Source of the DNA: a virus
Reading direction: 5' to 3' (one strand)
Virus record (IMG/VR): IMGVR_UViG_3300046535_001869
Location: 45,300 to 109,299 of that record
DNA length: 64,000 nucleotides
Below the pieces are notes generated by a model that made no database searches, was not told the DNA's origin, and worked only from the letters and a program-made list of their open reading frames with translations. The position numbers and the translations under genes are program-made. Below, piece by piece: positions 44,683 through 61,739 of this stretch. Numbering within the stretch: the first letter of the stretch is position 1; every line of letters starts with the position of its first letter.

Positions 44683-45417
44683 ATGGAGACAGCGACGCCC
44701 CTTTTAGACACCCTCCGCCGCGACGGCATCGCCCGCGTCTACCCGCCCCTCGGCGCCGGCCCGGCGGCCGAGCTCGCCGCGTACCTGCGCGCCGCGCCGT
44801 GCTACCCGGGCCACGTGCGCGTGTACGGCGACGGGGTCGCGCGGTCGTGGGATGTTACCTCGGAGATATGTGACGTCTGGTGCCATTCCTTGGAGACGAT
44901 CGTCCTGGCGCCCCATCTCTGGGACCTGGCGATTGGCCTCCTCCCGGCCGCCGCGCGGTACCTCGACGCCCCACCACGGCTCTATTCGATGAATGCCTTC
45001 TGGTCGCGCGCGTCCGCTACCGAGCCGATGCTTGACCTCCAGACCTGGCATCGCGACCGCGACGACGATAAGTTCCTCGCGCTGTTCGTCTACGGGACCG
45101 ACGTGCTATGCGAGGAGGACGGACCGCACCGGTTTATGATCGGGACCCACGACCCGAAGTGCGTGATGGCGAACTACGGACCTCCGGTCTTCGGCCCTGC
45201 CGGCACGACCTTTCTCGCCGACACGCGCGGCCTTCACATGGGGGTGAAACCAACGAGCCGCGAGCCACGCCTAATCGTCTGGGCGCGTTACGGCATCTCC
45301 GAGCGCCCGTGGGCCTACGGGCAGGATCAACTGGCGCCGGTCGCGGCAGCGCGACTCGGGGATCGCTATCCACCGGACGCGGCGACGCGGAAGATGGTGG
45401 AGCTCGTCGCGGCGTGA
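44683..45417 (+). CDS. PhyH-like 2-oxoglutarate/Fe(II) dioxygenase
   Basis: WHRD (HxD), LFVYGTDV..DGPH, GPAGT..DTRGLHMG, downstream Arg. Confidence 0.75.
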   Translation: METATPLLDTLRRDGIARVYPPLGAGPAAELAAYLRAAPCYPGHVRVYGDGVARSWDVTSEICDVWCHSLETIVLAPHLWDLAIGLLPAAARYLDAPPRLYSMNAFWSRASATEPMLDLQTWHRDRDDDKFLALFVYGTDVLCEEDGPHRFMIGTHDPKCVMANYGPPVFGPAGTTFLADTRGLHMGVKPTSREPRLIVWARYGISERPWAYGQDQLAPVAAARLGDRYPPDAATRKMVELVAA

Positions 45418-48122
45418 AGTCCGCCACCGTAACCCGACTCCCCGGGACCCGGCGCCAGCGCGCCGCGAAGGCAGCTCCGTCGATCTCGCAGCAGGCGGTC
45501 GATACCTCAGCCCAGCGGCGCCAGCGGCGCGTCGACCCGTTCGCGATGCCCCACCATCCGCCCGGCGTGATCCCCGCGGGCGAGGGTGGTTCGAAGATCG
45601 CCCAAGATTCCGCGATAGACGAGGCTTGGGTCTGGGCGCAGCAGTCGTTCATCAACAGCGCGGTCGCCGAGGGCACGACGTTCCTCGGCTACGCCGCGCT
45701 CTCGATCTTGGCCCAGCGCGCCGAGTACCGCGTCATCTCCGAGGAGATCGCCTCCGAGATGGTCCGCGAGTGGATAGAGCTGAAGGCGGTCGGAGACGAG
45801 GACAAGACCGAGCGGATCGCTCAGCTCAACGCTGAGATGGAGCGGCTCGATGTCCGCGCGGCGTTCGAGCGCGGCGGCGCGGTCTACGACGGACTCTTCG
45901 GCCGCGGCCACGTCTACCTGGATACAGGTGACTCGGACGATCGCGACGAGCTGAAGACCCCGATCGGCGACGGGTGGAACTTGATGAGCCGGTCGAAGAT
46001 TGGGCTCGAGGGCCACAATGGCAGGACTGAGACTAAAAAGATCCTCGCCCTGCGCCCGGTCGAACCCGTCTGGTGCTATCCGACGACGTACGATTCCAAC
46101 GACCCGCTGAAGCCAGACTGGTATTGCCCGACGACGTGGCACGTTATGGGGAAGGAGGTCCACGTCTCGCGCCTGCTGACGTTCATCGGTCGTGAGGTTC
46201 CTGACCTGTTGAAGCCCGCCTACTCCTTCGGCGGCCTCTCGATGTCCCAGATGGCCAAGCCGTACATCGACAACTGGCTGCGCACGCGCCAGTCGGTCAG
46301 CGACAAGGTGGCCTCGTTCAGCGTCCGCGGGATCAAGACCCCTGGCCTGGCGGCCTCGCTCAGCGCCGGGGGCGACCTAATCTACAAGCGCGCCGAGATC
46401 TTCAACAACATGGTCCAGAACTCCGGGCTGATGCTGCTCGACAGCACCAACGAGGAGTTTTTCGAGGTCGCGACGCCGCTCGGCGGGCTCCATGAGCTCC
46501 AAGCGCAAGCGCAGGAGCACATGGCTTCTGTGAGCAGAATACCTCTTGTCAAGCTCCTGGGCATCACCCCGTCCGGCCTGAACACCTCGACCGAGGGCGA
46601 GATCCGCTCGTTCTACGACTGGATTGCTAGCTTCCAGGAGCACCTGTTTCGCAAGAACCTCCACGCGGTCATCGGGTTCCTCATGCTCGGGCTGTGGGGA
46701 GAGGTGGACCACGGGATCAAGTTTGAGTTCAAATCCTTGTGGCAATTGGACGAGGCGGCCCAGGTCGCGGTTGAGAAGACCAAGACAGACATCGACGACG
46801 CGAATGTCGCGATGGGTTCGGTCAGTCCCGAGGAAGTTCGCAAACGGATCGCTCAGGATCCATCCTCGACCTATGCCGGCCTCGACCTCGACCCGGACGA
46901 GCTCCCCGAGCCGCCCGGCGGCGAGATGGAGATGGGCGAGCCAGGATCGGAACTGATGGGCCATAATGGCGGCCCAGAGCTGAACGACGAGGGTGAGGTT
47001 CGCTCCCCACCGTCGCCTGGTGCCCCAAAGGGCGCGATCCCCGGCGCACGCAACCCGCGTGATAACTCGCTGTCCGTTACCTCGCGCGCCGGCAACCTCG
47101 CCTCCCCGACCGGTGGGTTCGGCGGTGATTCTTTAGCTGAGGAGGTTCATGTCTATCTTGAGGCTGTAAACGACTCCCGTCACGCTAATGACAAGTGGAA
47201 TGAGAGCGACCATCCTCGAGGCAATCCCGAGAACTCCGGCGAATTTACCTCAGGAGGCGGTGGCGGTAAAACAAGTCATCTTCATCCATCAGAAGGCAGC
47301 GGAAAAGAACGCACCGCGGTTGGTGGTGGGGGCCTTCCAGAACATATCGTTAGTCTGGCGATACCCCCTGCATGGACTGACGTGAAATACAGTTCGGATC
47401 CAAAAGCCGACCTTCTGGCGGTTGGTCGTGATGCAAAAGGCCGCGAACAGCGAATATACTCGGATGCATACCACGCGGCCCAGGCTGAGGCTAAGTTTCG
47501 ACGAATCTCCGAACTGAGTGACAAGTTCAAAGATATCAAAGCGCAGAACGAGGAGCTGCGGAAATCGCCCGATAAACGTGTCCGTGATTCTGCTGACTGC
47601 ACAGCCCTAATCATGTCGATGGGTATCCGTCCTGGCGGGGAATCGGATACTGGCGCCGATAAGTACGCTTATGGTGCGACGACGCTCAAAGGCGAGCACG
47701 TGGTTACCGAATCTGATGGTTCGGTGCGCTTGAAATTTGTTGGCAAGAAGGGCGTTGATCTCGATCTACCGGTCGAGGATCGAGGTCTCGCGCATATGCT
47801 GGTATCCCGGGCACGCAGGGCCGGCGCGAGTGGGCAGATCTTCCCCAGTACGAGCGCCGGTGCACTCCTTGGGCATGTTCACACGTTGGACGGTGGTGGG
47901 TTCAAAACAAAGGATTTTCGGACCCTGCATGGCACCAGAACAGCGATCAAAGAAGTTGCCCGCCAACCGGTACCGAGGTCGGCCTCGGCCTATAAGAAAG
48001 CCGTGCGATCAGTCGCGGCAGCGGTTGCAAGAACATTAGGCAATACCCCGACAGTCGCGCTACAATCATACATCAACCCCGTTGTTTTTGCCCGATGGAG
48101 ATTGGCAAGTGGCGCAGCATGA
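45414..48122 (+). CDS. Portal protein (DUF1073-like) fused to C-terminal DNA topoisomerase IB
   Basis: Portal: FLGYAALS, VHVSRL, YSFGGLS, IPLVKLLGITPSGLN. TopIB: IPPAW, GRDAKGR, GIRPG, FVGKKG, KDFRT, LGNTPTVALQSYI. GTG start overlaps the upstream stop. Confidence 0.9.
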   Translation: MKSATVTRLPGTRRQRAAKAAPSISQQAVDTSAQRRQRRVDPFAMPHHPPGVIPAGEGGSKIAQDSAIDEAWVWAQQSFINSAVAEGTTFLGYAALSILAQRAEYRVISEEIASEMVREWIELKAVGDEDKTERIAQLNAEMERLDVRAAFERGGAVYDGLFGRGHVYLDTGDSDDRDELKTPIGDGWNLMSRSKIGLEGHNGRTETKKILALRPVEPVWCYPTTYDSNDPLKPDWYCPTTWHVMGKEVHVSRLLTFIGREVPDLLKPAYSFGGLSMSQMAKPYIDNWLRTRQSVSDKVASFSVRGIKTPGLAASLSAGGDLIYKRAEIFNNMVQNSGLMLLDSTNEEFFEVATPLGGLHELQAQAQEHMASVSRIPLVKLLGITPSGLNTSTEGEIRSFYDWIASFQEHLFRKNLHAVIGFLMLGLWGEVDHGIKFEFKSLWQLDEAAQVAVEKTKTDIDDANVAMGSVSPEEVRKRIAQDPSSTYAGLDLDPDELPEPPGGEMEMGEPGSELMGHNGGPELNDEGEVRSPPSPGAPKGAIPGARNPRDNSLSVTSRAGNLASPTGGFGGDSLAEEVHVYLEAVNDSRHANDKWNESDHPRGNPENSGEFTSGGGGGKTSHLHPSEGSGKERTAVGGGGLPEHIVSLAIPPAWTDVKYSSDPKADLLAVGRDAKGREQRIYSDAYHAAQAEAKFRRISELSDKFKDIKAQNEELRKSPDKRVRDSADCTALIMSMGIRPGGESDTGADKYAYGATTLKGEHVVTESDGSVRLKFVGKKGVDLDLPVEDRGLAHMLVSRARRAGASGQIFPSTSAGALLGHVHTLDGGGFKTKDFRTLHGTRTAIKEVARQPVPRSASAYKKAVRSVAAAVARTLGNTPTVALQSYINPVVFARWRLASGAA

Positions 48123-48321
48123 AGAAGATCAAGATCAGTTACCGGAAATTCATTTCGGCACCGCAACTGCTAAGCCGACCGTGAACTGGCGGGATGAGGA
48201 GTTCGACGATCCGGATCCTGATGATGACGAGGAACTAGCCGAAACCCCGGCCGATGTGATTAGCATGCTGGGATTTGATCCCCTGGACGACGAGCCGGAT
48301 GAGTCTTCACGTTCACTTTAG
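48109..48321 (+). CDS. Very acidic small protein
   Basis: EEFDDPDPDDDEELAETP...MLGFDP; overlaps the TopIB end. Confidence 0.65.
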   Translation: MAQHEEDQDQLPEIHFGTATAKPTVNWRDEEFDDPDPDDDEELAETPADVISMLGFDPLDDEPDESSRSL

Positions 48322-49747
48322 AAGCTCGATCGATCCTGGCCGAGCTCGCCGGTTCGCTGGTCTACTTCAAAACCATGTCGGAGTCTTAGAGGAAGGCAAA
48401 TATCTCCGTGATCCCGCCGGCACGCTATGGCGGGTGCGTGAGGTCCGCCGGGTTGTGGCGCTGGCACACGACGGCCTGGCAATGGATGAGATCTCCTGGA
48501 AAGAGGAGGAGCATCCCAGGGCGAAGAACGGCGAGTTCGCTAAGTCCTCCGAAGTTAGCCAGCACATAAAGGGCACACTCAAGACTGCCGGATATACTCC
48601 TTCCAAGTTCGGCGGGTATTATCATTCATCTGGTCACCATGTAAGAATTATGTCCCCCGAGGGCGGGCAGAAACTGTCCTCAATCTGGGAGCACCGGCAT
48701 GGGGGGACAAACAAGTTTGCCCACGGTTTCGGTTCGCCGAGTTTGTTGGCATATTTAGACAAAATCAAAAAACAGCCCGAGGCGAAGACTGAGACTCCAA
48801 AGGTCGAGCCAAAGGTCGAGGCTGAGATCTCGAAGACCGCGATAAAGCTTCCAAAGAAGCCTGGCCCCATCACCTCGCCCTCGAATGCGCATAATCAGAA
48901 GCATCTCGATACGTTAGAGGCACTGGCCCTCGCAGGGAAGTGGGACGCGCTCCTCGCGTACAAGAACAAGCTGAAGGGGAGTAATGGCTACGCAAGAATG
49001 ATCCAGAAGTACGGCGACGAGTTGCTTGCTGCCCGGTCGCAGACCGGGGAGGTCACGAAGAACGAACTGAAAACCACGCAATCGTACGAAGATGGATTAG
49101 AGTTCCACGCGACAGATACTGTTAGTGAACTCTTTCAATCTCGTGTGAAAACTACGTGGAGTATGTTACCCGAAAGCGTGAAGAGTGCGGTCGTAAAAAA
49201 CGGCACGCAGGTTCGCATGGGATTTTCTACAACGGAGGTAATGCCACATCTTAAAGATATGGCACCAAGAGGTTGGCCCAAGGGGAGCACCTGGGACATG
49301 GCGGAGGGACTTTATAGTCCATCTATAAACTCCGTAGTAGTGTCTGAAAATCTCTATGATAGAAGTCTCCGGGAATTTATTCCAACGCCTCGCGCCAAGG
49401 CGGTATTACGGCACGAAATAGGTCATGCATACGATCGTGCTTTGGCGAATAGTACAGATCCAGGGGTCGAGTATTCTCAGTCGCAGAAGTTCCGCGAAGA
49501 CTATAATGATGATTACAACGCAATGGATTTGAAGGCTGGTAGATATTCTGGAATAGGTTATTATCTGCAAGAGGGCAATGCTGGACCGTCCGAGACATTC
49601 GCTGAGATAACTGCCCAAGTTATGGCAGAAGTGGGAAGCGAAGGGGTCCTTGGGACCGGTGGCTCTAGTCTAGTGTTTTTAAAGGACTGGTTTCCAAAGA
49701 CATATGCACACATAAAAACCCTAATCATTGGAGAGACCGAGGCGTGA
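48299..49747 (+). CDS. Putative virion cargo protein with C-terminal zincin metallopeptidase
   Basis: LAMD-EISWKEEEHPRAKNGEF tag; LRHEIGHAYD (HEXXH) and SETFAE. Confidence 0.8.
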   Translation: MSLHVHFRSSIDPGRARRFAGLLQNHVGVLEEGKYLRDPAGTLWRVREVRRVVALAHDGLAMDEISWKEEEHPRAKNGEFAKSSEVSQHIKGTLKTAGYTPSKFGGYYHSSGHHVRIMSPEGGQKLSSIWEHRHGGTNKFAHGFGSPSLLAYLDKIKKQPEAKTETPKVEPKVEAEISKTAIKLPKKPGPITSPSNAHNQKHLDTLEALALAGKWDALLAYKNKLKGSNGYARMIQKYGDELLAARSQTGEVTKNELKTTQSYEDGLEFHATDTVSELFQSRVKTTWSMLPESVKSAVVKNGTQVRMGFSTTEVMPHLKDMAPRGWPKGSTWDMAEGLYSPSINSVVVSENLYDRSLREFIPTPRAKAVLRHEIGHAYDRALANSTDPGVEYSQSQKFREDYNDDYNAMDLKAGRYSGIGYYLQEGNAGPSETFAEITAQVMAEVGSEGVLGTGGSSLVFLKDWFPKTYAHIKTLIIGETEA

Positions 49748-49953
49748 AATTGTTTTTCATTACTAGCGAGAACGAGATTACCGTTGAAGGTTACATGAAG
49801 GGTGACGACGGTACGGTCGCTCAATACCATGATGTCATCAAGCCCAAAGGTAATGTCTTCGATGTTCCTTATGAGGAACTATCGGTTCACAAGGCCGGCG
49901 AGATCGAAGTTAACGACGACGGCTATATAATTCATGCGTACACTGATGCTTGA
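49744..49953 (+). CDS. Small acidic protein (candidate peptidase inhibitor)
   Basis: GTGA-coupled to the peptidase; same low GC. Confidence 0.55.
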   Translation: MKLFFITSENEITVEGYMKGDDGTVAQYHDVIKPKGNVFDVPYEELSVHKAGEIEVNDDGYIIHAYTDA

Positions 49954-50488
49954 TTCCATCCTCAACCACCCCCGCTACGCCCCTTACCACGGCTGGCACG
50001 ACGATCACCGCGCCGCCGATGGCACCCCGGCCTATCTCCCAGCGATGCAGCAGGTCCGCGAGGAGTTCATCGAGTTCCTGCGCGTCGTCCCCGAGCGTGG
50101 CTCGTGCCTACAGCTCGGCCTGGGCGAGTGCGACGCCTCCCACGCCGTTTGGTGCAGCCTGTTCGCCCACGTCGTGACGATTGACTGGCGCGCGTGCTTG
50201 GTTAACGAGGATAGCTACCCAGGCGCCGATACACGATCGCGTGAGGCAATCACCCTGGCCGTACGCTACGCGCCGTATGACCTAGTCTTCATCGACGCTG
50301 GTCACTCGTTCGTCGACGTCCAGCACGACTACCTCCACTACCGCGAGATGCTGCGCCCCGGCGGGATCGTCGCGCTTCACGACGCGCTGCCGCGCCCGAC
50401 CTACCCCGAGGTCGAGGTCCATAAGCTCATCGCGATGCTGCCCGGCGTCAAGATTATCGGAAATGAGGTGGGGATAGCCTGGTTATGA
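49946..50488 (+). CDS. Class I SAM methyltransferase (Methyltransf_24-like)
   Basis: LQLG, YDLVFIDAGHS...D...LRPGGIVALHD. Confidence 0.8.
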   Translation: MLDSILNHPRYAPYHGWHDDHRAADGTPAYLPAMQQVREEFIEFLRVVPERGSCLQLGLGECDASHAVWCSLFAHVVTIDWRACLVNEDSYPGADTRSREAITLAVRYAPYDLVFIDAGHSFVDVQHDYLHYREMLRPGGIVALHDALPRPTYPEVEVHKLIAMLPGVKIIGNEVGIAWL

Positions 50489-50646
50489 TCATCGAGATCC
50501 TGTTTGTCGTTACCATGTTCCTGTGGTTCCTGACGAGGGTGCCGCATCCGTCGATCGCTCAGTTCGAGCCAGCTGGTGGCTACCTCGCGTTCGTCGCGGT
50601 CCTCCTCCTGGGCATCGCGGTCTATATGCCAGGACTGGGTCGCTGA
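50485..50646 (+). CDS. Small two-TM membrane protein (53 aa)
   Basis: Manual translation MIIEILFVVTMFLWFLTRVPHP...YLAFVAVLLLGIAVYMPGLGR; coupled at both ends. Confidence 0.65.
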   Translation: MIIEILFVVTMFLWFLTRVPHPSIAQFEPAGGYLAFVAVLLLGIAVYMPGLGR

Positions 50647-51812
50647 TCCGCCTCGTCTCCCTCGGCGGCACCGGCGACGCGTACCTCATCTGCGCGCTGG
50701 CGAACCATGTCCGCGATAAGTATGGCGACGACGTCACGATCGCCCTGAAGGAGACCCAGGCTGCGATCCCGGAGATGTTCGGCCTGCAATACGACCCGCG
50801 CCCCGTAGATGAAATTCGCGACGTAGAGCGCGACGGGACGCTCCACCGCGAGTACGAGAACACCCTGGGTCCCGGCCGCGTCTTCTACGCCCACCCCTGC
50901 TTCACGCGCTCCGGCGTCCGGATCGACGAGCTGACGACGCTGCCGCACGCCATATCCCAGGCGGATATGTACCGCGCGCTGCTCGGCCTACCGCTCGATG
51001 CGCCTCTGGCGCTTCCGAGACTACCAACCCCCGAGCCGCGCCCTAACACCGCGGTCCTGCTCACCGAGGCCGTCTCGTGGCCAAACGACCAGCCGGCCTT
51101 CTGGACTGCCTTAGCCGGCGCCCTTCGCGTTGGCGGCTGGAGCGTGGAGATACCGGGTTCTTCCCCATCCCTGGAATCTCTTCTATTGCTCGCCGCCAGC
51201 GCGGAGATGGTCGTTGGCCCGCAGTGTGGAGTGATGTCGATCCTCGTCGCCGCCGAGTTCCCGTGCCGCAAGGTCCTCGCCACGCCCTCGATCGACGAGG
51301 GTTCGGGTTTCCTGGTCGGGCGGACGCTGCTCAAGAAGACATACCCGTACGCCTACGTGACGAAGTTCACCGGGCAGGACTATGACGTCGAGGAGTATCG
51401 GGTCCGCGCTGAGACTCATGGCGAAATCATCGCCTCGATCCTTGTGGCTCCGCGGACCCCGCGCGATCCGCGTCCGGTAACGACCGTCGAGATGCCGCTG
51501 ACCCCCGGCGACTTCCTCGATCGATTGGCGGTTCTTACGGTCAAAGTTCGGCGTGGACTTCTACTGGCTAGCCGTGAGGCGAATCGCTATGCGGAGGCGC
51601 TTCCCGAGGAATGGCTTAGGCTCTTGGCCTCGTTGGTGGATCTCCACGAGACGACCTTCGACCGCCTCGCCACGGACGTCCCCGATGCGCTAGAGAATAA
51701 GTGGCGCGACGACCACGTCGCCGTCACCCTGAACCGCCAGCGGGTCGAGCTGAAGCGCGCAATCGACGACGAGCTCCGCGCGCCGTACCGCGAGGTCAAG
51801 GATTACTATTGA
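50643..51812 (+). CDS. GT9 (heptosyltransferase-like) glycosyltransferase with C-terminal DUF6165-like domain
   Basis: LGGTGDAYLICAL; SLESLLLLAASAEMVVGPQCG; PGDFLDRLAVLTVK...NRQRVELKRAID...EVKDY. Confidence 0.65.
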   Translation: MIRLVSLGGTGDAYLICALANHVRDKYGDDVTIALKETQAAIPEMFGLQYDPRPVDEIRDVERDGTLHREYENTLGPGRVFYAHPCFTRSGVRIDELTTLPHAISQADMYRALLGLPLDAPLALPRLPTPEPRPNTAVLLTEAVSWPNDQPAFWTALAGALRVGGWSVEIPGSSPSLESLLLLAASAEMVVGPQCGVMSILVAAEFPCRKVLATPSIDEGSGFLVGRTLLKKTYPYAYVTKFTGQDYDVEEYRVRAETHGEIIASILVAPRTPRDPRPVTTVEMPLTPGDFLDRLAVLTVKVRRGLLLASREANRYAEALPEEWLRLLASLVDLHETTFDRLATDVPDALENKWRDDHVAVTLNRQRVELKRAIDDELRAPYREVKDYY

Positions 51813-51997
51813 TGCCGCGCTGGTGGCCCACATACTTTACCAACGCCGATCGCGCGCTGCTCTACCGTATCGCGGCTGATCAGGGCGAGATCCTTCGTCT
51901 CCTTCGCACGTTGATCGACCAGAATCGAGCCACCGGGATACGGGTCGAGCTTGGTACCCCCACCGATAAGTCGGACAACCATGGCAAGAGCAGCTAG
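51812..51997 (+). CDS. Small protein with LGxPTDK tail
   Basis: MPRWWPTYF...ATGIRVELGTPTDKS. Confidence 0.65.
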   Translation: MPRWWPTYFTNADRALLYRIAADQGEILRLLRTLIDQNRATGIRVELGTPTDKSDNHGKSS

Positions 51998-52412
51998 TCA
52001 GAGCGTTCAGACGACGATCCCCCTAGATCCGAATTCGGATCTGCGCGCCGAACTCGTTGCGGCGCTCGACGTCCTAGAGCCGCAGATCCGGGGTCTAACT
52101 GATCTCAGCTACATCCCCGGGTCACCCGAGCTGGAGACGTTCGTCGCGGCCCAGCTGGCGGCCCATCGTCGTCGGCGCGACCTGATCAATGCGGTCATCG
52201 GCGGGCTCGACTCGGTCATCATCGAGCGTACCGAGCTGGAGACCGACGGTTATCCGACCACGTCGACCGTTGCGATACCGATCAACGTCTTCCGCGAGCT
52301 TACGAACCAGGTCGACGATCTTGAGAAGGCCGCCTCGGTCTTCGAGGCGGAACCGGCGCCGACCGTTAGCGTTGCGCTCGGTAGTCCCACCGACAAACCA
52401 GAAGGAACATAG
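51981..52412 (+). CDS. Helical protein with LGxPTDK tail
   Basis: ...APTVSVALGSPTDKP. Confidence 0.7.
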   Translation: MARAASQSVQTTIPLDPNSDLRAELVAALDVLEPQIRGLTDLSYIPGSPELETFVAAQLAAHRRRRDLINAVIGGLDSVIIERTELETDGYPTTSTVAIPINVFRELTNQVDDLEKAASVFEAEPAPTVSVALGSPTDKPEGT

Positions 52413-52414
52413 AC

Positions 52415-52750
52415 ATGGCACAGCTCACCACTCGCCAGATGGTTCACGCCACCCTCGCAGTCACCAAGGCCGATGGCTCGGCCGGTCAGGTTGAGGCCGG
52501 CTCGGTCGTCTGGGCCTCCTCGGACGAGACCGTGGTTCTCGCTGCGCCGAGTGCCGACGGAATGGAGGCGGACATCAGCTCCGTTGCACCGGGCGGTCCG
52601 GCCCGCTTCACGGTGACGGCGGACGCCGACCTCGGCGCCGGGGTGGTGAACATCATCGGCGTCTCGGAGGACATCCTCGTGACGGCCGACCCCCGCGACC
52701 AGGCCTCGATCATCAATATCACGCTCGGGGCGCCGACCGATAAACCGTAA
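52415..52750 (+). CDS. Ig-like (BIG-type) protein with LGxPTDK tail
   Basis: VVWASSDETV, FTVTADADLG; ...ASIINITLGAPTDKP. Confidence 0.75.
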   Translation: MAQLTTRQMVHATLAVTKADGSAGQVEAGSVVWASSDETVVLAAPSADGMEADISSVAPGGPARFTVTADADLGAGVVNIIGVSEDILVTADPRDQASIINITLGAPTDKP

Positions 52751-53550
52751 TGCCCCGCGCCAGGACGATCGCCCCGGTCCGCCCGTCCGCGGCGATCGAG
52801 GCGCTGTACCGACGTCGGCTCGATGCGCTTCTCGACGAGATGCACCGGAGCCTGGTCTATTGGATCAGTGCCAACTACCGGGCGAACGAACCGGAGATCG
52901 CGAAGCTGGCGACGGATGACAGCCCGGCAGCCAACCTCCGTTCTGCCTTCCGGCGCTTGGCACGTCGGTGGACTAGCCGGTTCGATGATCTTGCCGCAGA
53001 CCTCGCGAAGTATTTTGCGACCCAAACGGCCCAAAGAAGTACCTCGGCGCTCCAGTCGATGCTGAAGAAGGGCGGGATGACCGTTCGGTTCAGGATGTCC
53101 CGGCCCGTCAACGACATCGTCAGCGCAGCTGTCGGAGAGAACGTCTCGTTGATCAAGAGCATCGCCCAGCAGCACCTGACCGCGGTTGAGGGGCACGTGA
53201 TGCGCTCAGTCCAGACTGGGCGCGACCTGGGCACGCTGGCTAAGGAGCTCCAGGACCAGTTTGGGGTGACGAAACGTCGCGCGGCCCTGATCAGTCGTGA
53301 CCAGAACAACAAAATGACTGCGGTCGTTACTCGCGCGCGGTTCGTCGAGCTCGGCGTTCAGGAGTGTCAGTGGGTCCACTCGTCGGGCGGAAAGGTTCCT
53401 AGACCATCGCACGTCAAGGCGGGGAAGGAAAAGACGAAATTTGATCCAAAAATCGGATGGTTCGATCCAGCAATTGAAAAATACATTTGGCCAGGGACAG
53501 AAATAAATTGCAGATGTGTAAGTCGACCAGTTATTCCTGGTTTTTCTTAA
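52750..53550 (+). CDS. MuF/SPP1-gp7-like minor head protein
   Basis: ENVSLIKSI, RAALISRDQNNK, WVHS...RPSH, PGTEINCRC. Confidence 0.9.
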   Translation: MPRARTIAPVRPSAAIEALYRRRLDALLDEMHRSLVYWISANYRANEPEIAKLATDDSPAANLRSAFRRLARRWTSRFDDLAADLAKYFATQTAQRSTSALQSMLKKGGMTVRFRMSRPVNDIVSAAVGENVSLIKSIAQQHLTAVEGHVMRSVQTGRDLGTLAKELQDQFGVTKRRAALISRDQNNKMTAVVTRARFVELGVQECQWVHSSGGKVPRPSHVKAGKEKTKFDPKIGWFDPAIEKYIWPGTEINCRCVSRPVIPGFS

Positions 53551-54404
53551 CTCTTCCATAAGTCCAACCTTCTGGTATTACATCGTTAGACATTAGCTTT
53601 TTATTGCGTTTTCCATTATTAATCCATAGAAAACCTTTCTTAATATTACTATTGAATGGAACTCTTCCTAATTTCCAATTTTCTGGTACTGTTTCATTAA
53701 TATCGATACGATGATTTATTAACTAACTCAGTCGCCGATATATCTCGATTGATTATTCCGTTAGTAATTTTGATGATAGATCCGCGGGTAAGCCGGCTTT
53801 TAAGAGCGGATTTTCTCCTAGATTCAGGATTAGGCAAAGTTCTGATGATTAATCCTGCGTGTACTTTACTCCAATATTCTATTGATGCTTGAGAACAAGA
53901 TTCACGAGTCTTCGCAGAGTGGGTCCAACCATCGTCGTGTCGTTTTTCCCAAGATAATTTAACTGAGCTACTGGTCTTTTCTCGTTGCTCTTCAGTTGCT
54001 ACGTGACTCGCGCTGGCTTCTGATATCTTTTTCTTAGATTCATCTGTATGCTTGTAGCCCAGAGTTATTTGATTACCGAGCATCGCTTGAACCATTGCTC
54101 TTCTAGCGACGGCATATTGCCAGGATGATATAATTCGTTTTCCATATTTGTTGTGGGTCATTAAGCGAAGCGCCCGGCACATTTTCTTTTGATTTTGGCC
54201 GCTAGTGCATTTTGTAAGTAACCAATGAGCTAGAAAATGTTTTCTAAATGATAATCTAACTACCTCTTTGTTATTTTTTCTTTTGAATGATCTAGGAATA
54301 GGATGATGTAGCTCGGTATCAGATCCTACGTCACTTTTTGAAAGTATTTGCACGTACCGACGATAGTACTTGTTATCGACGAGCATTTCTGGATCAAATC
54401 GCAT
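53531..54404 (-). pseudogene. HNH/NUMOD3 homing endonuclease-like gene with a frameshift in its C-terminal repeats
   Basis: ELHHPIPRS, HFLAHWLL, HTDESKKKIS; TNG..PEGW..GR repeats continue in another frame after ~53720. Confidence 0.65.
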
Positions 54405-54528
54405 CTTGCCATGCTCCGTGCCAGGGATCGACGCGGCAATTTCCCTGGCAAGAGAGAAGTTTCAGTGTTGCAACACCTAGCCGCGTCGGTACGAAGCATA
54501 CCTCACTTACCTTAAAAGGTAAACAACA

Positions 54529-54801
54529 ATGCCCTGCCCCTGCGGCAAGAACACCCGAGAGCGATTATACTGCCACCGCCCCGACTGCGGCACGCTGGTA
54601 GCGGTGGACCTGCCTCCCCCGACCGTCGACGTGACCCCGGCCGTCAATGATGCGACCGGGGCGCTTGACGTCGTCGTTCACCGCGATGGCAAGGGACGCT
54701 CGTACCGGGCGGAGGGTACCAGCTCAGTCGAGCTGGTCAAAGACGCCGTGAGGAAGGTCCTCGCGGACCCATACTCGGCCGAGTGGGTTCCGAAGGCGTG
54801 A
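54529..54801 (+). CDS. Small Cys-containing hypothetical protein
   Basis: CPCG...CHRPDC. Confidence 0.55.
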   Translation: MPCPCGKNTRERLYCHRPDCGTLVAVDLPPPTVDVTPAVNDATGALDVVVHRDGKGRSYRAEGTSSVELVKDAVRKVLADPYSAEWVPKA

Positions 54802-54989
54802 GCGACTGCGTCTGCATCGTCTGCCGGACCCATCTCCTCTCCGCGCTCCTCGTGGGCTGCCAGGAGTGCGCCACGTTCGTCTGCCCGGCCTGTGGGACGC
54901 ACGGCAAGGTCGTGCCGTTCGGGACGTACACGGTGCCGCCGAGCGCGGTGAACTCGGTCAGGTCGTCGGTCTGGGGGAGGCCGAACTAG
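54798..54989 (+). CDS. Small Zn-finger protein
   Basis: CIVC, CQEC, CPAC. Confidence 0.55.
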   Translation: MSDCVCIVCRTHLLSALLVGCQECATFVCPACGTHGKVVPFGTYTVPPSAVNSVRSSVWGRPN

Positions 54990-57900
54990 GTGTTCGGGGT
55001 CGCGACGGCTCGGGATGTGTTCGAGGAGTCAGCTCATCCCAGAGGGCAGCCCGATAATCCTGGTCAGTTCGCTAAGAGTTCGGAGCACGTGGCCTATCAT
55101 AAAAAGATGGGTCAGTATCATAATTCAAATTCAAAGTCCGTAGAAGATAAGCACGGATTTGCGGCCGTATCCCACTTCGAGGCGGCCTCAGCCCATAGGA
55201 AGAACGCTCCGGAGGCGAAGCGTTTATCAGATAAGGCGAAGACGGCGACTGCCGCAACCGAGTACGGCGTCTCCCGCGAGCCGCAACAATCGCGTAAGAA
55301 GAACTTTATTCCGGAATCCGATGATGAGATTACTCCTGAGGTCCTGAGGAATGTCCTGTCCCAGCTTCCACCAGAGGCCAGGACCCCGGCTGGTGCTGAG
55401 AGGTTATTCAACAGCAAGATCGCCGAGCTTAACTCGCGCGGCGACCTAACATTTTACCATGAGAGCGATGGGGACCAAGTATCGTCGATGCGACAGAAGG
55501 GTCTCGTCGATAGGGACCATGGGATCTACGCAGCGATAAATGCGCCAAGCAATTTCATTACGTCTCCGGTCAAAACGGAAGTCCAGTTCAAGGTTCCCCC
55601 GAGGAATAGCCGGGACATCGTCCCAGACGAGAGCTTTAGTTGGTCCGAAAAAATATCGCCGCACCAGATACTGCTTTTAGCTCATCCGGATCTGAAGGGA
55701 GCCTATGTCAATGCTGGAGACGCGATCCCTTCGAGTCAGATCAAGAGTGTTCGTCTAATTCAAGGTAAGGCCCACGATCGCATGCCCTTGGCCATCGCCA
55801 CCGACCCTCCGGTCTCCGAGAAGCAGCGCCGCGCGATGTTCGCGGCGAAGGCCGGTCATTCGACCCTAGGAATCCCGCAGTCCGTAGGCGAAGAGTTCAC
55901 CTCTGCCGACCCCGGCGGCAAGCTCCCCGAGCACGCCAAGGCCAAGGACATGGCCCGCACCAAGTGGTCCGCGCTGAAGCGCCTGCTCCTGGAGTGGATC
56001 GACGAGGAGCGGGCCGAGCCGGAGCACGCGACGGACGCCGAGAAGCGCCCCAAGCCAGACGTTGGCTTCGAGCACCCGGCCAAGGGCACCGACCACTGCG
56101 CCGATTGCACTCACTTCGAGGCCCCGGATGCCTGTGAGCTCGTCGAGGGCCGTGTCCAACCGCGCGACTGGTGCAAGATGTTCCTGGCGAGCCAGACGCG
56201 ACCGGAGGCGGAGGATGAGGACCCCAGGGTCCGCGCCGCCGGCATCGCTTTCGTCACCCCCGAGGGCAAGACCCTGTTCCTCCGCCGCTCCGACGCGAGC
56301 GACCACGAGGGCGAGTGGTGCTTCCCCGGCGGAGTCATCGAGGCCGGCGAGACGCCGGAGGAGGCCGCGATCCGCGAGGCGAGCGAGGAGACGGGTTACA
56401 GCGCGAGGGAAGGCGCTGGGGGCATGAGACAGGCGCACAGGCACTTACACGACGGCGTCGAGTTCACGACGTTCTACCAGCCCGTGGCAGCGCCGTTCGA
56501 CCCGAATCTCAACGACGAGTCGACCGAGCACGCGTGGCATCCGATTGATGCCGCGCCGGACCCGATCCATCCTGGGGTGCGCGCGACGATCGACGAGATC
56601 TTAGCGAACCTGGATGACTCGGCCGAGAACGAGGCGGAGGATGCGGTTAAACACGACCCGAAGACGGGGCAGTTTACGTCGTCCAGTGGAACGTCCTACT
56701 CGACAAAGCCGAAGGAAAAAGGCGGCGGATCGACGGTCCACCATGAGTCCGGAGAGATCGGCAATACGAACTTCATCGCTCCGAACCCGAACTATCCCAA
56801 GGACAAGAGCGGATATACTGCCTGGAGCAGCCATACCAAGGGATATGTCGGTAGTCCGCGCTCTACCGCTGGAGCTAGTGCGGCCTCACGAACGATGGGG
56901 AGCCTGCTGGGTCGAAAGCCGACCATCAATCCTCGCTTGTTTACCTCGGAGCATCACGCCATTAAGGGTTTGATCGAGCATCACGAGGCTCATAAGGCCT
57001 CGGCTCAGGACACCCCGACTACCTCCGCCCTCCCAGACGCCGCGCGCCGCGCCAGGTTGCGCGGGCGCGGGGACCTGGCGCGGAGGATCGAGGCGGAGGA
57101 TGCTGAAATCAAGCGCGATGAGCATGGTCAGTTCGCCGCTAGCCAGGGCTACAACGAGGTTGCGCACAACCAGGAGGGACAACCCTGGACCTGGGCAAAG
57201 AAGATCGGGGCCGATCCATCCGGCACGACACACACGGTCAATATAAAACACGCCGGTGAGCCGAAGTCGTTCATCGCTACGCGCCTTTTTAAGCCATCCG
57301 GGACGATCTCTGGTGGTAGTGTCCTGGTCGGGAAGCACGCCTCCTTCAAGGAGGCCCACGAAGCAAGCCTAAAAGCAATCAACTCGCTGCCGCGGATGAA
57401 GGATGCGCCGCCGTTTGGTCAAGATGAGGTCAAACACGACCCGAAGACGGGGCAATTCACGTCAGGTGAGGGAGCTGCTGGCTTTGGTGATCTTCATAAG
57501 ACCTACGGAAAGGGTGGATATCTAGATTCCCATACTCTGGAAGAATCTCACCCTCATACCGTTGCTGAATTTTCTAAGGCGTTTGTTTCTCATGATCCTG
57601 GTTCCTATGAGCAACACCAGGAGTTGAATAAGACCAAGAAGAGGTTGTCGGCGGATCCTTCTCACTCCTCCGGCGCCGTGGAGGATACTCATAAGATGAT
57701 AGCCCAGCGTTTAAGGGCAAATCACGGCACGCCGGCACGTCCAGCAGCGGTGCAGCGAACGGCAGCGATGAGTCGTTATCTGAAGGATAAGGTCGGCGGC
57801 CGAGCCAAAGACTCCGGCATCGGCCCCAACGGCCACCTGACCGTCGGCGCGCAGACCGACCCGAACGGCGGGTTCGGCTGGGCCATCGGCGGGAAGGTCG

Positions 57901-58565
57901 GGACCGGGAAGCGGCAGATGCGGATGTCGTCAGCGGTGAAGTCTGGACGGGGGCTCGCCAACGTCGCTCAGGACATGGCCCTAGCTACTGACAAGCGGAC
58001 GTACGACAAGGACGGGCGCCTCCACGTTGACCGCGCTAACGTGACGAAGGCCTGCGTGAACCCCTACACCGGCGCCGAGATCAACGCAGTAATGAAGGGA
58101 ACTGACAACTGGAAGATGCTCGACCCGGATCGTCGCTATGCGCTTCTGCGTCATCCCGACGAGCTCCGCAAAGCGGTCGACACGTTTAACGGTCTCCCGA
58201 TCTTGTTCACTCACAAGCCAGCCTCGGCCCAGGACCATCCGCACGAGATTACGGTTGGTGCTACCGGGAACGATGCCTCGTGGGAACCTCCCTACGTTCG
58301 CAACAGCTTGAGCATCTGGCCCGCCTATGCCAGCGAGGCGATCGACGACGGTTCGCAGCGTCAGTTGTCCATGGGTTACGCCTATCGTGCAGAGATGACC
58401 CCAGGTGTTTACGAAGGCGAGAAATATGACGGCGTGATGCGCGACATCGTGGGCAACCATCTCGCGATGGTTCGCGAAGGTCGTGCAGGGGCGGACGTCG
58501 CGATCGACCGGGCGCTGATCTCCTGGCGCGGGATCGCTGCGGCCATCCGAGAGCTGAGGACCTAA
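54990..58565 (+). CDS. Polyprotein: tagged modules, ART-like, HiPIP-like and Nudix domains, C-terminal DUF2213 prohead protease
   Basis: FYHES..RQKGL; CADC..C..WC; GGVIEAGETPEEAAIREASEETG; RTYDKDGRLHV..VNPY.G.EI..LSMGY..GNHLAMVREGRAG. Confidence 0.85.
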   Translation: MFGVATARDVFEESAHPRGQPDNPGQFAKSSEHVAYHKKMGQYHNSNSKSVEDKHGFAAVSHFEAASAHRKNAPEAKRLSDKAKTATAATEYGVSREPQQSRKKNFIPESDDEITPEVLRNVLSQLPPEARTPAGAERLFNSKIAELNSRGDLTFYHESDGDQVSSMRQKGLVDRDHGIYAAINAPSNFITSPVKTEVQFKVPPRNSRDIVPDESFSWSEKISPHQILLLAHPDLKGAYVNAGDAIPSSQIKSVRLIQGKAHDRMPLAIATDPPVSEKQRRAMFAAKAGHSTLGIPQSVGEEFTSADPGGKLPEHAKAKDMARTKWSALKRLLLEWIDEERAEPEHATDAEKRPKPDVGFEHPAKGTDHCADCTHFEAPDACELVEGRVQPRDWCKMFLASQTRPEAEDEDPRVRAAGIAFVTPEGKTLFLRRSDASDHEGEWCFPGGVIEAGETPEEAAIREASEETGYSAREGAGGMRQAHRHLHDGVEFTTFYQPVAAPFDPNLNDESTEHAWHPIDAAPDPIHPGVRATIDEILANLDDSAENEAEDAVKHDPKTGQFTSSSGTSYSTKPKEKGGGSTVHHESGEIGNTNFIAPNPNYPKDKSGYTAWSSHTKGYVGSPRSTAGASAASRTMGSLLGRKPTINPRLFTSEHHAIKGLIEHHEAHKASAQDTPTTSALPDAARRARLRGRGDLARRIEAEDAEIKRDEHGQFAASQGYNEVAHNQEGQPWTWAKKIGADPSGTTHTVNIKHAGEPKSFIATRLFKPSGTISGGSVLVGKHASFKEAHEASLKAINSLPRMKDAPPFGQDEVKHDPKTGQFTSGEGAAGFGDLHKTYGKGGYLDSHTLEESHPHTVAEFSKAFVSHDPGSYEQHQELNKTKKRLSADPSHSSGAVEDTHKMIAQRLRANHGTPARPAAVQRTAAMSRYLKDKVGGRAKDSGIGPNGHLTVGAQTDPNGGFGWAIGGKVGTGKRQMRMSSAVKSGRGLANVAQDMALATDKRTYDKDGRLHVDRANVTKACVNPYTGAEINAVMKGTDNWKMLDPDRRYALLRHPDELRKAVDTFNGLPILFTHKPASAQDHPHEITVGATGNDASWEPPYVRNSLSIWPAYASEAIDDGSQRQLSMGYAYRAEMTPGVYEGEKYDGVMRDIVGNHLAMVREGRAGADVAIDRALISWRGIAAAIRELRT

Positions 58566-58567
58566 GA

Positions 58568-59614
58568 ATGCGACTCATCGACGCCTTAAAGAAGAGGTTT
58601 CAGACACCAGAGCAGGCTCTAGAGGCTCTGGGTTTGGACGCCGCGACGATCGCGCTCGACGCGGCTATACGACCAGCGCGCGACAACAAGGAGAAGGCCA
58701 CCATGACGATCCAGTCGAAGTGGTCCCCCACGGCGCTGGTCGCCATGGGGGCACTGCAGAATTATCTCAATCCCCGCCTCGCCCAGGACGCGGCGATCAA
58801 CCTCCGCCCGATCCTGAAGGACGTGACGGCCAAGAACTTCACCGCCCGGCGCCCGTACGTGACCAGCGCGATCCGCGCTGCGGTCTCGGGCAACTTGGCA
58901 CAAGATGCCGACATCGAGGACCTCCCCGAGATCCTCGATAATATCGAGGCGCTCGCCGGTGAGGCCAGCCAGGCCGTTGGCGGCGAGGCCGGCCCGGACG
59001 ACGGCAACCCGATGGCCGACCCGGTCGACGAGGATGCCGGTGGCGACCCCGATGACGCCGGTGCGGGCGACCCGGATGTAGCTGCCGGTGACCCGGACGC
59101 GATGCAGTCCGGCGAATCGGACGCTAACGAGATCGAGGACTTCCTCCGCGACAAGCTTGATCCGGCCGACCTCGATACCGTGTGCGCCATGATGAAGGCC
59201 GCCAAGGCCGGCGGCGCCGTCGACGAAGACAATGGAGCAGACCTCGAAGCAGGGAAACCACCAGCGATGGACAAGAAGGCGATGGACGCGGCCATCAAGA
59301 CCGCCGTCGAGGCGGCCGTGGCGCGCGTCGAGAAGAACCACAACGCGGTAGCCGAGGCCCAGCGGATGGTCCGGCCGTACGTCGGTGACCTCAGCGTGGC
59401 GTTCGACTCGGCCGAGGCTGTCTATCGGCACACGCTGACCGCCATGGGCGTCAACGTGAAGGACACGCACCCCGACGCGCTGCCCGCGATCCTCGCGGCC
59501 CAGCCGAAGCCGGGCGCGCGCCGGAGCAGCGAGGCCCGGATCGCCCACGACGAGGCGGCGGCGAAGGGCTTCTCGGAGCGCTTCCCGAGCGCCTCCCACA
59601 TCAGGACGATGTAA
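58568..59614 (+). CDS. Capsid scaffolding protein
   Basis: Acidic/Ala-rich; VRPYVG...FDSAEAVYR; lies between protease and decoration genes. Confidence 0.75.
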
Positions 59615-59646
59615 CCAACCCGCCAAACCTTCAAGGAGATTATGAA

Positions 59647-60615
59647 ATGGCAAACGGGTTTCAGGCGAGTGTTGGCACCCAGCCCGCCCCCGCCGTGGCC
59701 GGCGACTTCGCCGATCACAATCCTCGCGTCTCGGTCATGGCCGGGCCGGGAGGCTTCGTAGCAGGCGGCTCCGGCGTTATCGTCGGGCACTTCGCCTGGG
59801 CCTCGTACGCGGGGATCGACCCCGACAACGCGCCGACGATCGTTAACAGCTTCGGTGGCGGTGCGCCGACCGGGTTTGTCCACCGCGAGCAGCAGGCGCT
59901 GATCACGACCTACCTGGCCGACGCCGGGATGGTCGTGCCCCAGGGCTTCGGCGTCACCTTGTTCAACGAGGGCGGCTTCTGGGTCAAGAACGACGGCACG
60001 ACCGCCGCGCTGATCGGCCAGAAGGCGTACGCGCGCAACTCCGACGGCGCGGTCCTCTTCGCCGCCACCGCAACGCCGGGCACCGCGACCGTCACCGGCT
60101 CGATCGGCCCGGTCGCGACCACCTCGGTCACCGGCTCGATCAGCGGCAACGTCCTCACGGTCACCGCGGTCAGCTCCGGCACCCTCTATCCCGGCTCGGT
60201 GCTCACGGGCACGGGCGGCGGCGGCGTCGCGTCCGGTTCTACGATCGTATCCCAGCTCTCGGGCACGACCGGCGGCACGGGCACGTACTCGCTCAGCGTC
60301 CCCAACCAGACCGTGACTTCGACTACGATCACGGCCGCCGCGGGCCTCCTGACAGTCGCCTCGGTCTCGTCCGGCGTCCTAGCGGTCGGCGACGTCCTTA
60401 GCGGTACCGGCGGCGGCGGTGTCACGTCCGGCACCACTATCACGGCGCTCGGCACCGGGACGGGCCTCACGGGTACGTATATCGTGACGCCGACCCAGAC
60501 CGTCGCGGTCGGCACGGTGATCACCGCCGGGGTCACGACCGAGACGAAGTTCGTCGCGATGTCCTCGGGCCTCGCGGGTGAACTCATCAAGATCAGCTCC
60601 TGGCCCCTCGGCTAA
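59647..60615 (+). CDS. Head decoration protein with two Thr/Ser/Gly-rich repeats
   Basis: GFQ..V...[29 protein letters not shown]; repeats LTV..VSSG.L..G.VL.GTGGGGV.SG. Confidence 0.8.
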
Positions 60616-60641
60616 GGTCGCAGAGAGAAAGGAATAGCACC

Positions 60642-61739
60642 ATGAACGCAACGGAAGCTCTCGCGGCCTTTCGCGGAGACAAGGCGCACCTGGAGGAGCT
60701 CGGCATCGCCTGGCAGCCGGGCACCGAGCCAATCGGCTACGTCACGCCGGAGATGAAGCGCGACTACCGGATCGCGATGGACGCGCTGCCAACGCTGACT
60801 ACCGACCCGAACTCGGGCGTCCCGGCGATGCTCACGACGTTGATCGACCCGAACGTCTACGAGGTCCTCTTCGCCGCGAACAAGGCGGCGGTGATCCTCG
60901 GCGAGCTCCGGAAGGGCACGTGGCTCGATCAAACCGCGATGTTCCCGGTCGCCGAGGCCACCGGCGAGACCAGCACATACGGCGACTTCAACGAGAACGG
61001 TCGGGCCGGCGTCAATACCAACTGGCCCCAGCGCCAGGCGTACCTGTTCCAGATCATCAAGGAGTACGGTGAGCTGGAGCTGGAGCGTGCGGGGCTGGCC
61101 CGGATCAACTGGGTCTCGGAGATCGACAAGGCGGCGGCCTTGAACCTCAACAAGTTCGCCAACCTGACGTACTTCCGCGGCGTCTCGGGCCTCCAGAACT
61201 ACGGGCTACTGAACGACCCGAACCTGAGCGCCTCTATCACCCCGGCGACCAAAGCGGCCGGCGGCGTGACGTGGTTCTCCGGAACCAGCCCGAACGCCAC
61301 GGCCAACGAGGTGTACAACGACATCCTGGCGACGTACACGCAGCTGGTGGTTCAGACCGCGGGCCTGGTCGAGATGGACACTCCGCTGAAGCTGGCCCTG
61401 GGAACGACGAATGCGGTGGCGATGAAGTTCATCAACACCTTCGGGTTGACCGTCGCGGACATGCTCGACAAGACGTTCCCGAACCTGAAGATCGAGTCGG
61501 CGGTGCAGTACAACGCGCTGTCAACCCAGAACACCCAGGGGAACCCGGCGGGCAACCTGATGCAGTTGATCGCCGACAACGTCGAGGGCCAGGCTACCGG
61601 CTTCTGCGCGTTCAACGAGAAGATGCGGTCACACCCGATCATCCGCGCCACCTCGTCGTTTAAGCAGAAGGTGACCGCGGGTACTTGGGGCGCCGTACTG
61701 CGTTTCCCCGCTGGTATAGCATCGATGGTCGGAATTTAA
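60642..61739 (+). CDS. Major capsid protein (DUF2184-like)
   Basis: IAMDA, NSGVPAMLTT.IDP, KGTW, YGD, RQAY.FQ..YGELE, YGLLNDPNL, GTWGAV. Confidence 0.9.
   Translation: MNATEALAAFRGDKAHLEELGIAWQPGTEPIGYVTPEMKRDYRIAMDALPTLTTDPNSGVPAMLTTLIDPNVYEVLFAANKAAVILGELRKGTWLDQTAMFPVAEATGETSTYGDFNENGRAGVNTNWPQRQAYLFQIIKEYGELELERAGLARINWVSEIDKAAALNLNKFANLTYFRGVSGLQNYGLLNDPNLSASITPATKAAGGVTWFSGTSPNATANEVYNDILATYTQLVVQTAGLVEMDTPLKLALGTTNAVAMKFINTFGLTVADMLDKTFPNLKIESAVQYNALSTQNTQGNPAGNLMQLIADNVEGQATGFCAFNEKMRSHPIIRATSSFKQKVTAGTWGAVLRFPAGIASMVGI

Follow-up and report, generated by a model that had tools for sequence, protein, structure and literature searches.

In phage T4, the internal proteins (IPI-III and Alt) enter the prohead as cargo and are trimmed there by gp21, the protease that also matures the capsid and the scaffold, at sites of the same kind, [L/I]-x-Glu. 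Polyvalent proteins, as defined by Iyer, Burroughs, Anand, de Souza, and Aravind in 2017, are chains of several enzymes that are encoded together with portal and terminase and include zincin metallopeptidase (MPTase), NUDIX, LPD3, ddrB-ParB, and ADP-ribosyltransferase (ART) domains; a C-terminal assemblin-like peptidase was noted in that work and expected to act in virion processing, with autoprocessing by the zincin being favoured (PMC5512222). Here, we describe an arrangement with features of both systems in an uncultured tailed phage (virus record IMGVR_UViG_3300046535_001869, 109,299 bp), of which the right 64 kb (hereafter the window) was analyzed. Six copies of a peptide tag occur in three of its head proteins, each preceded by an x-x-Asp tripeptide, and one of these proteins ends in a DUF2213 prohead protease. 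Taken as a whole, this arrangement is probably best explained by a DUF2213 protease that cuts after Asp and would thereby free tag-headed modules as capsid cargo, a reading that is built on comparison of sequences.

With the polyvalent proteins, the locus shares both setting and enzymes: TerS, TerL, portal, MuF, scaffold, and major capsid protein (MCP) genes lie around the tagged genes, a HEIGH zincin and a C-terminal DUF2213 domain are present, and individual polypeptides join at least two unrelated enzyme domains, that is, the portal with a type IB topoisomerase (TopIB), and NUDIX with DUF2213 and at least five segments without a family match. The 2017 survey mentions neither the tag ("HPR" gives 0 matches) nor DUF2213 nor a cut-site rule (PMC5512222). 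Common to T4 and the present phage are the gp21 fold (here predicted) and N-terminal leaders ending in a cut site (here likewise predicted). In contrast to T4, however, the residue before the predicted cut (position P1) is Asp, the putative cargo is found mainly in strings or on the portal and not as stand-alone proteins, and a conserved tag, whose sequence does not resemble that of the T4 targeting sequence, is predicted to remain on the mature cargo. By analogy, the likeness to T4 capsid-targeting cargo would be one of working principle and not of membership. A PF06381 portal, MuF, a DUF2213 protease-scaffold, and a PF09950 MCP are shared with T1 (gp47/gp50) and TLS (gp36/gp33), in which the mature capsid N-terminus likewise follows x-x-Asp, whereas their portals are short and unextended in the head regions examined. 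The ejection proteins of SPN3US (phiKZ-like) and the Dar proteins of phage P1 are comparable in that the head interior contains many proteins that either undergo processing by the prohead protease or enter by way of an N-terminal signal (PMC9024508; PMC5694885, PMC7411985). Neither their proteases nor their site rules are the same; in P1, cleavage of the capsid protein takes place after Glu120 (PMC9024508). In a literature search, neither the tag nor an Asp rule for DUF2213 proteases was found to be described, and the preliminary description of this DNA likewise knew of no account of the combination of cut site and tag. What is added here is a quantitative covariation test, an anchor from Edman sequencing of TLS, a fold assignment, and a short variant of the tag.

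The preliminary description had listed six tags, each after x-x-D, and a pattern scan recovered all of them at the places stated, on the + strand, with the coordinates confirmed by re-translation. Three are of a long form (aromatic-x-acidic-x2-HPR-x3-6-G-x-F) and three of a short form (V/I-K-H/R-D-x2-3-G-x-F), with a flexible Gly/Ser stretch behind them; the site upstream is A-x-D in five of the six and G-Q-D in the remaining one. In the open reading frame (ORF) of the portal-TopIB protein, an A-N-D site (47184-47192) stands before the long tag KWNESDHPRGNPENSGEF, followed by a Gly-rich linker and TopIB (first junction, 47184..47246). The zincin peptidase ORF carries an A-M-D site and the tag EISWKEEEHPRAKNGEF (second junction, 48479..48538). 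The other junctions are all located in a polyvalent head polyprotein of 1191 aa (54990..58565, +), where A-R-D precedes the long tag VFEESAHPRGQPDNPGQF (third junction, 55008..55070), A-E-D the short tags AVKHDPKTGQF (fourth junction, 56634..56675) and AEIKRDEHGQF (fifth junction, 57093..57134), and G-Q-D the short tag EVKHDPKTGQF (sixth junction, 57417..57458). In the long tags, the aromatic start comes 0-2 residues after the end of the Asp site; in the short tags, the H/R-D core follows it by 3-4 residues. A loose tag pattern, applied to the six frames of the window and of the whole 109,299-bp record, found no further credible copy. Chance is ruled out as an explanation of the pre-tag sites, the probability being about 0.7% per position by a rough composition-based estimate, which is not a computed value.

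The A-x-D tripeptide is also more frequent than composition predicts in two of the tagged ORFs, with 20 observed against 9.0 expected in the polyprotein (Poisson p = 0.001) and 5 against 1.6 in the peptidase ORF (p = 0.02), and is close to expectation in the remainder of the genome. In the scaffold of this phage, the 11 copies against 7.6 expected are not significant. A G+C that is often lower had further been ascribed to the modules behind the tags. Compared with portal core, protease, scaffold, and MCP (0.61-0.67), this is true of TopIB (0.56), of the peptidase module (0.50), and of the first polyprotein module (0.53), but not of the NUDIX region (0.70). Their diversity and exchangeability, also part of the preliminary description, are borne out by TopIB, zincin, and NUDIX in this phage and by LPD3, ddrB-ParB, and ART modules in its relatives; the tag lies outside the coverage of the Pfam models.

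For a comparison of structural proteins, 80 viral contigs with a DUF2213 protease were fetched and their head proteins aligned (74-77 loci per protein). In each of three proteins unrelated to one another, a hydrophobic-A-x-D motif occupies a single position with hardly any variation (the slash marks the predicted cut): L-A-M-D-/-A-Q-P in the MCP (D in 73/77, A at P3 in 70/77, and A at P1' in 70/77), [LM]-A-M-D-/-[SE] in the N-terminal region of the portal (D in 71/74, A at P3 in 66/74), and [IM]-A-Q-D-/-E-S-P-A in MuF (D in 66/77). The corresponding sites of the present phage, already pointed out as IAQD, LATD, and IAMD in the preliminary description, are indeed found in the portal (I-A-Q-D, 45600-45608, conserved in the alignment of 74 relatives), in MuF (A-T-D, 52909-52917), and in the MCP (60774-60782), where the conserved I-A-M-D-/-A is the predicted maturation cut. 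In the relatives, the scaffold part contains 665 A-x-D against 314 expected (ratio 2.1), and the ratio of observed to expected is 2.0 in the modules upstream of the protease, 0.85 in the portal core, and 0.56 in the mature MCP. Such an enrichment in scaffold and cargo strings, together with depletion in the mature MCP, is what would be expected of a protease site.

Cultured phages provide physical reference points for this rule. The N-terminus of the mature TLS capsid protein was determined by Edman degradation as ASDMGIW (PMC11447400), a sequence that starts at residue 33 of the TLS reference sequence, right after A-K-N-D32, and gp33 of TLS matches the DUF2213 profile built here (1.6e-18). 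In the same paper, 45 residues are surmised to be removed from the TLS capsid protein (PMC11447400), which differs from the Edman start at residue 33 (locus L231, 5073-6062); this discrepancy may come down to the choice of start codon. The cryo-EM model of the T1 MCP spans residues 27-319 (PMC11945409) and thus starts directly after K-Q-D26, with T1 gp50 belonging to PF09979 (8.7e-26). For both T1 and TLS, the cut was placed in the corresponding N-terminal MCP region by eye and not by alignment. In E217, which has a DUF2213 protease as well, the cryo-EM model of the MCP begins at residue 66 (PMC10329688), two residues past A-M-D64, at a position homologous to I-A-M-D47 of the present phage. 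An Asp rule is stated in none of these three papers (PMC11447400, PMC11945409, PMC10329688), and the papers on Pam3 and Pa193 hold no information on the capsid N-terminus. Together with the conservation in MCP, portal, and MuF and the covariation described below, these N-termini argue that [small]-x-Asp is very probably the cut site of DUF2213 proteases. The earlier suggestion that the DUF2213 protease cuts after Asp is accordingly well backed as far as the site itself is concerned, whereas cutting at the pre-tag sites of this particular phage is a prediction.

The protease itself forms the C-terminal end of the polyprotein, where an A-T-D site (57984-57992) is followed by the DUF2213 prohead protease domain (57996-58508; 57984..58508 in all, +; Pfam PF09979, E = 2.1e-40, polyprotein residues 1003-1173). 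The consensus of its relatives likewise begins with xLAxD-/-RxSVR, that is, with A-x-D directly before the protease core. His73, Ser125, and His155 (numbered from 57996) are invariant in 46 aligned sequences and present in the window, as are Arg52 and Arg163; by analogy, the first three would be the catalytic residues. A structural model computed from the alignment of 46 relatives reached a predicted local distance difference test score (pLDDT) of 91.3 and had T4 gp21 (5jbl) as its closest PDB match (Z 10.2, root-mean-square deviation 2.8 Å over 128 residues), followed by herpesvirus assemblins with Z 8.4-8.7, as compared to Z 6 or less for unrelated MCE-domain entries; the Foldseek E-values for the same model are weak (about 4e-3). 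Sequence and model thus support the assignment of DUF2213 as a putative head serine protease of the gp21/assemblin fold. Its relatives are annotated as head maturation protease in 574 cultured phage records, and the domain is mostly fused to the scaffold. While the gene order portal, MuF, protease, scaffold, capsid is common to the window, phiE131, 4_D05, E217, T1, and TLS, protease and scaffold are one ORF in the latter five but two genes in the window, where the polyprotein ends with TAA and the ATG of the scaffold follows 2 nt later in a different frame (58563-58570). An unfused protease may conceivably reach the prohead by riding on the other modules of the polyprotein.

The link between the tag and this protease can be followed across phages. 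Every true tag in the 80 DUF2213 loci has x-x-D in front of it. As an unbiased test, viral contigs were scanned at the DNA level for the core of the tag, W-x-E-x2-HPR-x3-G-x-F, by a pattern that ignores the upstream residues, and at least 112 viral stretches with this pattern were found beside head genes. The presence of DUF2213 (PF09979) was scored both locally and on whole records, and similar contexts were collapsed to clusters. Among the matches listed, DUF2213-positive records gave 59 context clusters, 53 of which have Asp at -2 to -4 from the aromatic residue of the tag; of the 23 clusters from DUF2213-negative records with a completeness of 50% or more, 4 have it (Fisher 5e-10). In the negatives, Lys is often found in place of Asp and adjoins the tag in two of the three with an HK97-type S78 protease. 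Since PF04586 (S78) was detected in just 3 of the 26 DUF2213-negative records, most of these have a protease that was not identified, so that the test compares presence with absence of DUF2213 and not one family with another; with HK97 gp4, lambda C, and T4 gp21 as seeds, iterative searches returned almost no proteases in these control loci, and a search with PF03420 (T4-type S77) was uninformative, the control genomes of the tool being unmatched as well. The residues around the pre-tag Asp in 71 tags (P3: A 39, T 8, G 7, V 6, S 5; P1': A 34, E 18) reproduce the pattern of the MCP, portal, and MuF sites, i.e., the cargo site matches the capsid maturation site. The rule also extends to the short tag, which in all DUF2213-positive loci where it was found (L205, L214/L226, L217/L222, L220, and L224) has x-x-D at a distance of two or three residues upstream, as in IHVHFHD-/-EVKHDPKTGQF. 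In the cultured Burkholderia phage phiE131, the portal (gp004) carries S-V-D-/-SQFKEDDHPRDADGKF with a tag of the long form.

From these data, a course of events can be proposed. The portal, the stand-alone peptidase protein, and the 1191-aa string that ends in the protease would act as head-interior carriers of enzyme modules of the polyvalent type. During prohead maturation, the DUF2213 protease would cut after Asp in [A, or T/G/V/S]-x-D-/-[A/E/S], a rule by which the capsid protein, the portal, and MuF would be trimmed and the scaffold degraded. By a cut just upstream of each tag, TopIB would come off the portal, stand-alone cargo would lose its leaders, and the polyprotein would fall into modules that are kept in the capsid, such that every freed module starts with the conserved tag. 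Cutting at the pre-tag sites as well as packaging and delivery of the modules into the host are deduced from sequence and have to be read as predictions.

Several observations weigh against this account. The case for cutting at the tags is comparative throughout, and the p-values overstate the independence of the data even with clustered contexts because the loci are interrelated. Six of 77 tags in DUF2213-positive records lack the Asp, four of them with Asn at the equivalent place. These Asn tags belong to loci L108, L126, L134, and L151 (A-Q-N-/-AN-W, M-N-/-AE-W, F-N-/-E-W, and A-Q-N-/-E-W); Asn may be accepted at P1, or else the four junctions stay uncut. Moreover, 6 of the 20 A-x-D in the polyprotein fall within the folded cores of the NUDIX and protease domains, so that A-x-D by itself does not mark a boundary and context and accessibility must matter. 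Position P3 is occupied by Lys in T1 and TLS instead of a small residue (Ala in the present phage), meaning that the Asp rule varies within the DUF2213 family. Finally, in some phages the tag directly follows the start Met, where there is nothing to remove; cutting is therefore not intrinsic to the tag.

Two other explanations do without cleavage at the tags by the head protease. According to one of them, the tags are conserved inter-domain linkers or N-caps that are never cut, the modules remain tethered, and the Asp was inherited with modules exchanged mainly among DUF2213 phages. Common descent of the related loci could indeed yield part of the covariation, and the virion RNA polymerase of N4 as well as some plasmid polyvalent proteins are known to be carried at full length (PMC5512222). 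It is nevertheless hard to see why mere linkers should keep P1 and P3 while P2 and the sequence upstream of P4 are highly diverse, and why the pattern kept should be that of the MCP, portal, and MuF sites, of which the capsid site is cut in TLS, T1, and E217. Leaders ending in x-x-D are conserved before tags that lie 10-30 residues from the start, which is difficult to explain without their removal, and the twofold enrichment of A-x-D in cargo strings together with its depletion in the mature MCP likewise speaks against uncut linkers, an explanation that we hold to be improbable. The other explanation would assign the cutting of the polyproteins to the zincin metallopeptidase (HEIGH, 48275-49747), which would recognize the tag. 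In its favour, MPTase is the commonest domain of polyvalent proteins and was proposed as their processor (PMC5512222), and the phage encodes one zincin that is itself tagged. The residue before the tag, however, follows the family of the head protease and not the tag, and the same A-x-D rule is kept in MCP, portal, and MuF, which are substrates of the head protease. In addition, the capsid proteins of TLS and T1 are cut after Asp with no such peptidase in their annotated head regions (whole genomes were not scanned). Processing by the zincin therefore appears very improbable.

A different question is what the tag is for; the preliminary description proposed an ejection or docking signal. It might be a capsid-targeting signal that docks to the procapsid, similar to the targeting sequences of T4 and P1 or to the cargo peptide of encapsulins, with the Asp site merely trimming whatever precedes it. 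The tag is the sole element common to all cargo modules and stands beside head genes in the viral contigs counted above (at least 112), and N-terminal peptides of 10-30 residues are enough for packaging in T4 and P1 (PMC9024508). Against targeting as the primary role, modules that have no need of it, being fused to the portal or the protease, are headed by the tag as well, and the same tag is shared by phages whose proteases are unrelated and whose scaffolds probably are, too. The Dar proteins of P1 are free of the HPR tag, for which reason its identity with the packaging signal of P1 DarB was rejected, and a MuF protein was detected in no more than 13 of the 17 near-complete genomes that bear the tag. 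Altogether, primary capsid targeting seems rather unlikely. We tentatively favour a role of the tag after release, be it in retention with the DNA, in ejection, or in action in the host, because it heads tethered modules and sits at the N-terminus in phages with other proteases, although this preference is itself held with less than even confidence.

A better candidate for an address that is clipped off may be found in front of the Asp. Stand-alone cargo of DUF2213 phages has an extra short leader at this place, for example MAKHLHIYFHTYD-/- and MNTQQRAILSKAHRLLAMD-/-, which looks more like such a clip-off address than the tag does; by sequence, a short His-rich or amphipathic leader may thus be the targeting signal. 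In the window, His-rich, strand-like leaders are seen as MSLHVHF (48299-48320) and as VHVYLEAVND before the portal tag (VHVYLE at about 47145-47162), and they resemble HLHIYFHTYD-/-, HLHIFIHTHD-/-, and IHVHFHD-/- of other DUF2213 phages (loci L181, L185, L138, L133, L217, and L222). Similarity of the leaders to the scaffold or protease of the same phage is not significant. A resemblance of the peptidase-protein leader to the protease motif NH-x2-V-x-EG-R (z = 3.1) was considered as well and rejected at a profile score of 0.8 bits.

The head module extends on the + strand from 41.7 kb onward in the window and comprises TerS, TerL, the portal-TopIB protein, a 490-aa zincin protein, a methyltransferase, MuF, the 1191-aa polyprotein, the scaffold, a cement protein, and the MCP. 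According to Pfam, the portal-TopIB protein (45414..48122, +) consists of a PF06381 core (about 45693-46796) and a C-terminal type IB topoisomerase module (47346-48059). The stand-alone tagged cargo protein (48275..49747, +) is built from a leader of about 71 aa that includes MSLHVHF, an A-H-D and the A-M-D site, the tag, a low-G+C module, and the zincin at its end; the HEIGHAYD motif of the latter (49412-49435) matches the phage-type MPTase of PMC5512222, and a lethal-factor-like zincin match is weak and under the Pfam cut-off. The MuF-like head morphogenesis protein (PF04233 by Pfam, 52750..53550, +), the scaffold (58568..59614, +, matching positions 184-426 of phrog_2229), which is a gene of its own, and the MCP of PF09950 type (60642..61739, +) complete the set of predicted substrates.

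In the polyprotein, a 9-aa leader and the first tag are followed by a module of unknown kind, a Cys-rich segment, NUDIX (56226-56585), three modules with short tags, and the C-terminal DUF2213 protease. Its GTG start comes immediately after an in-frame TAG, with GGAGG about 9 nt upstream. This TAG terminates a short Cys-rich frame (C-x2-C ... C-P-A-C, about 54840-54989) that abuts the GTG in the same frame and was read, from sequence, as a separate small gene for a putative zinc ribbon. Five segments of the polyprotein, and likewise the peptidase protein in its N-terminal half, were assigned to no family by either Pfam or PHROGs. A polyprotein segment after A-T-D272 (PPVSEKQRRAMFAAKAGHS..., 55806-55930) weakly matches phrog_16759 (58 residues, function unknown; E = 7e-4) and may represent a small stand-alone module family. 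As the single-sequence AlphaFold2 model of the whole polyprotein (1191 aa) was unusable (mean pLDDT 35.6), module boundaries are defined for NUDIX and the protease alone. The row of head genes is broken by two ORFs of low G+C (0.37-0.43 as compared to about 0.63 nearby) at 53697-54404 (-) and 62944-63579 (+), of which the first contains a NUMOD3 motif typical of homing endonucleases and the second has no family match.

If the proposed reading is true, it would provide a cut-site rule for a large and little-studied family of head proteases, represented in the cultured phage records mentioned above by the Pseudomonas PB1/E217 group, Acinetobacter phages, and T1-like coliphages, and mature virion proteins as well as packaged enzymes would become predictable from sequence. 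The attachment and release of varied enzymes by phages, among them topoisomerase, NUDIX, peptidase, and ADP-ribosyltransferase, would also find an explanation. The tag itself is a widespread peptide, and its partner would offer a direct handle on the retention or ejection of capsid cargo. More speculatively, and with little confidence at this point, the tag may constitute a transferable address on proteins that travel with the invading DNA, recognized by some component that very different tailed phages have in common. In this case, leader, site, and tag would together form a compact and portable code for loading into the capsid, release, and dispatch into the next cell.

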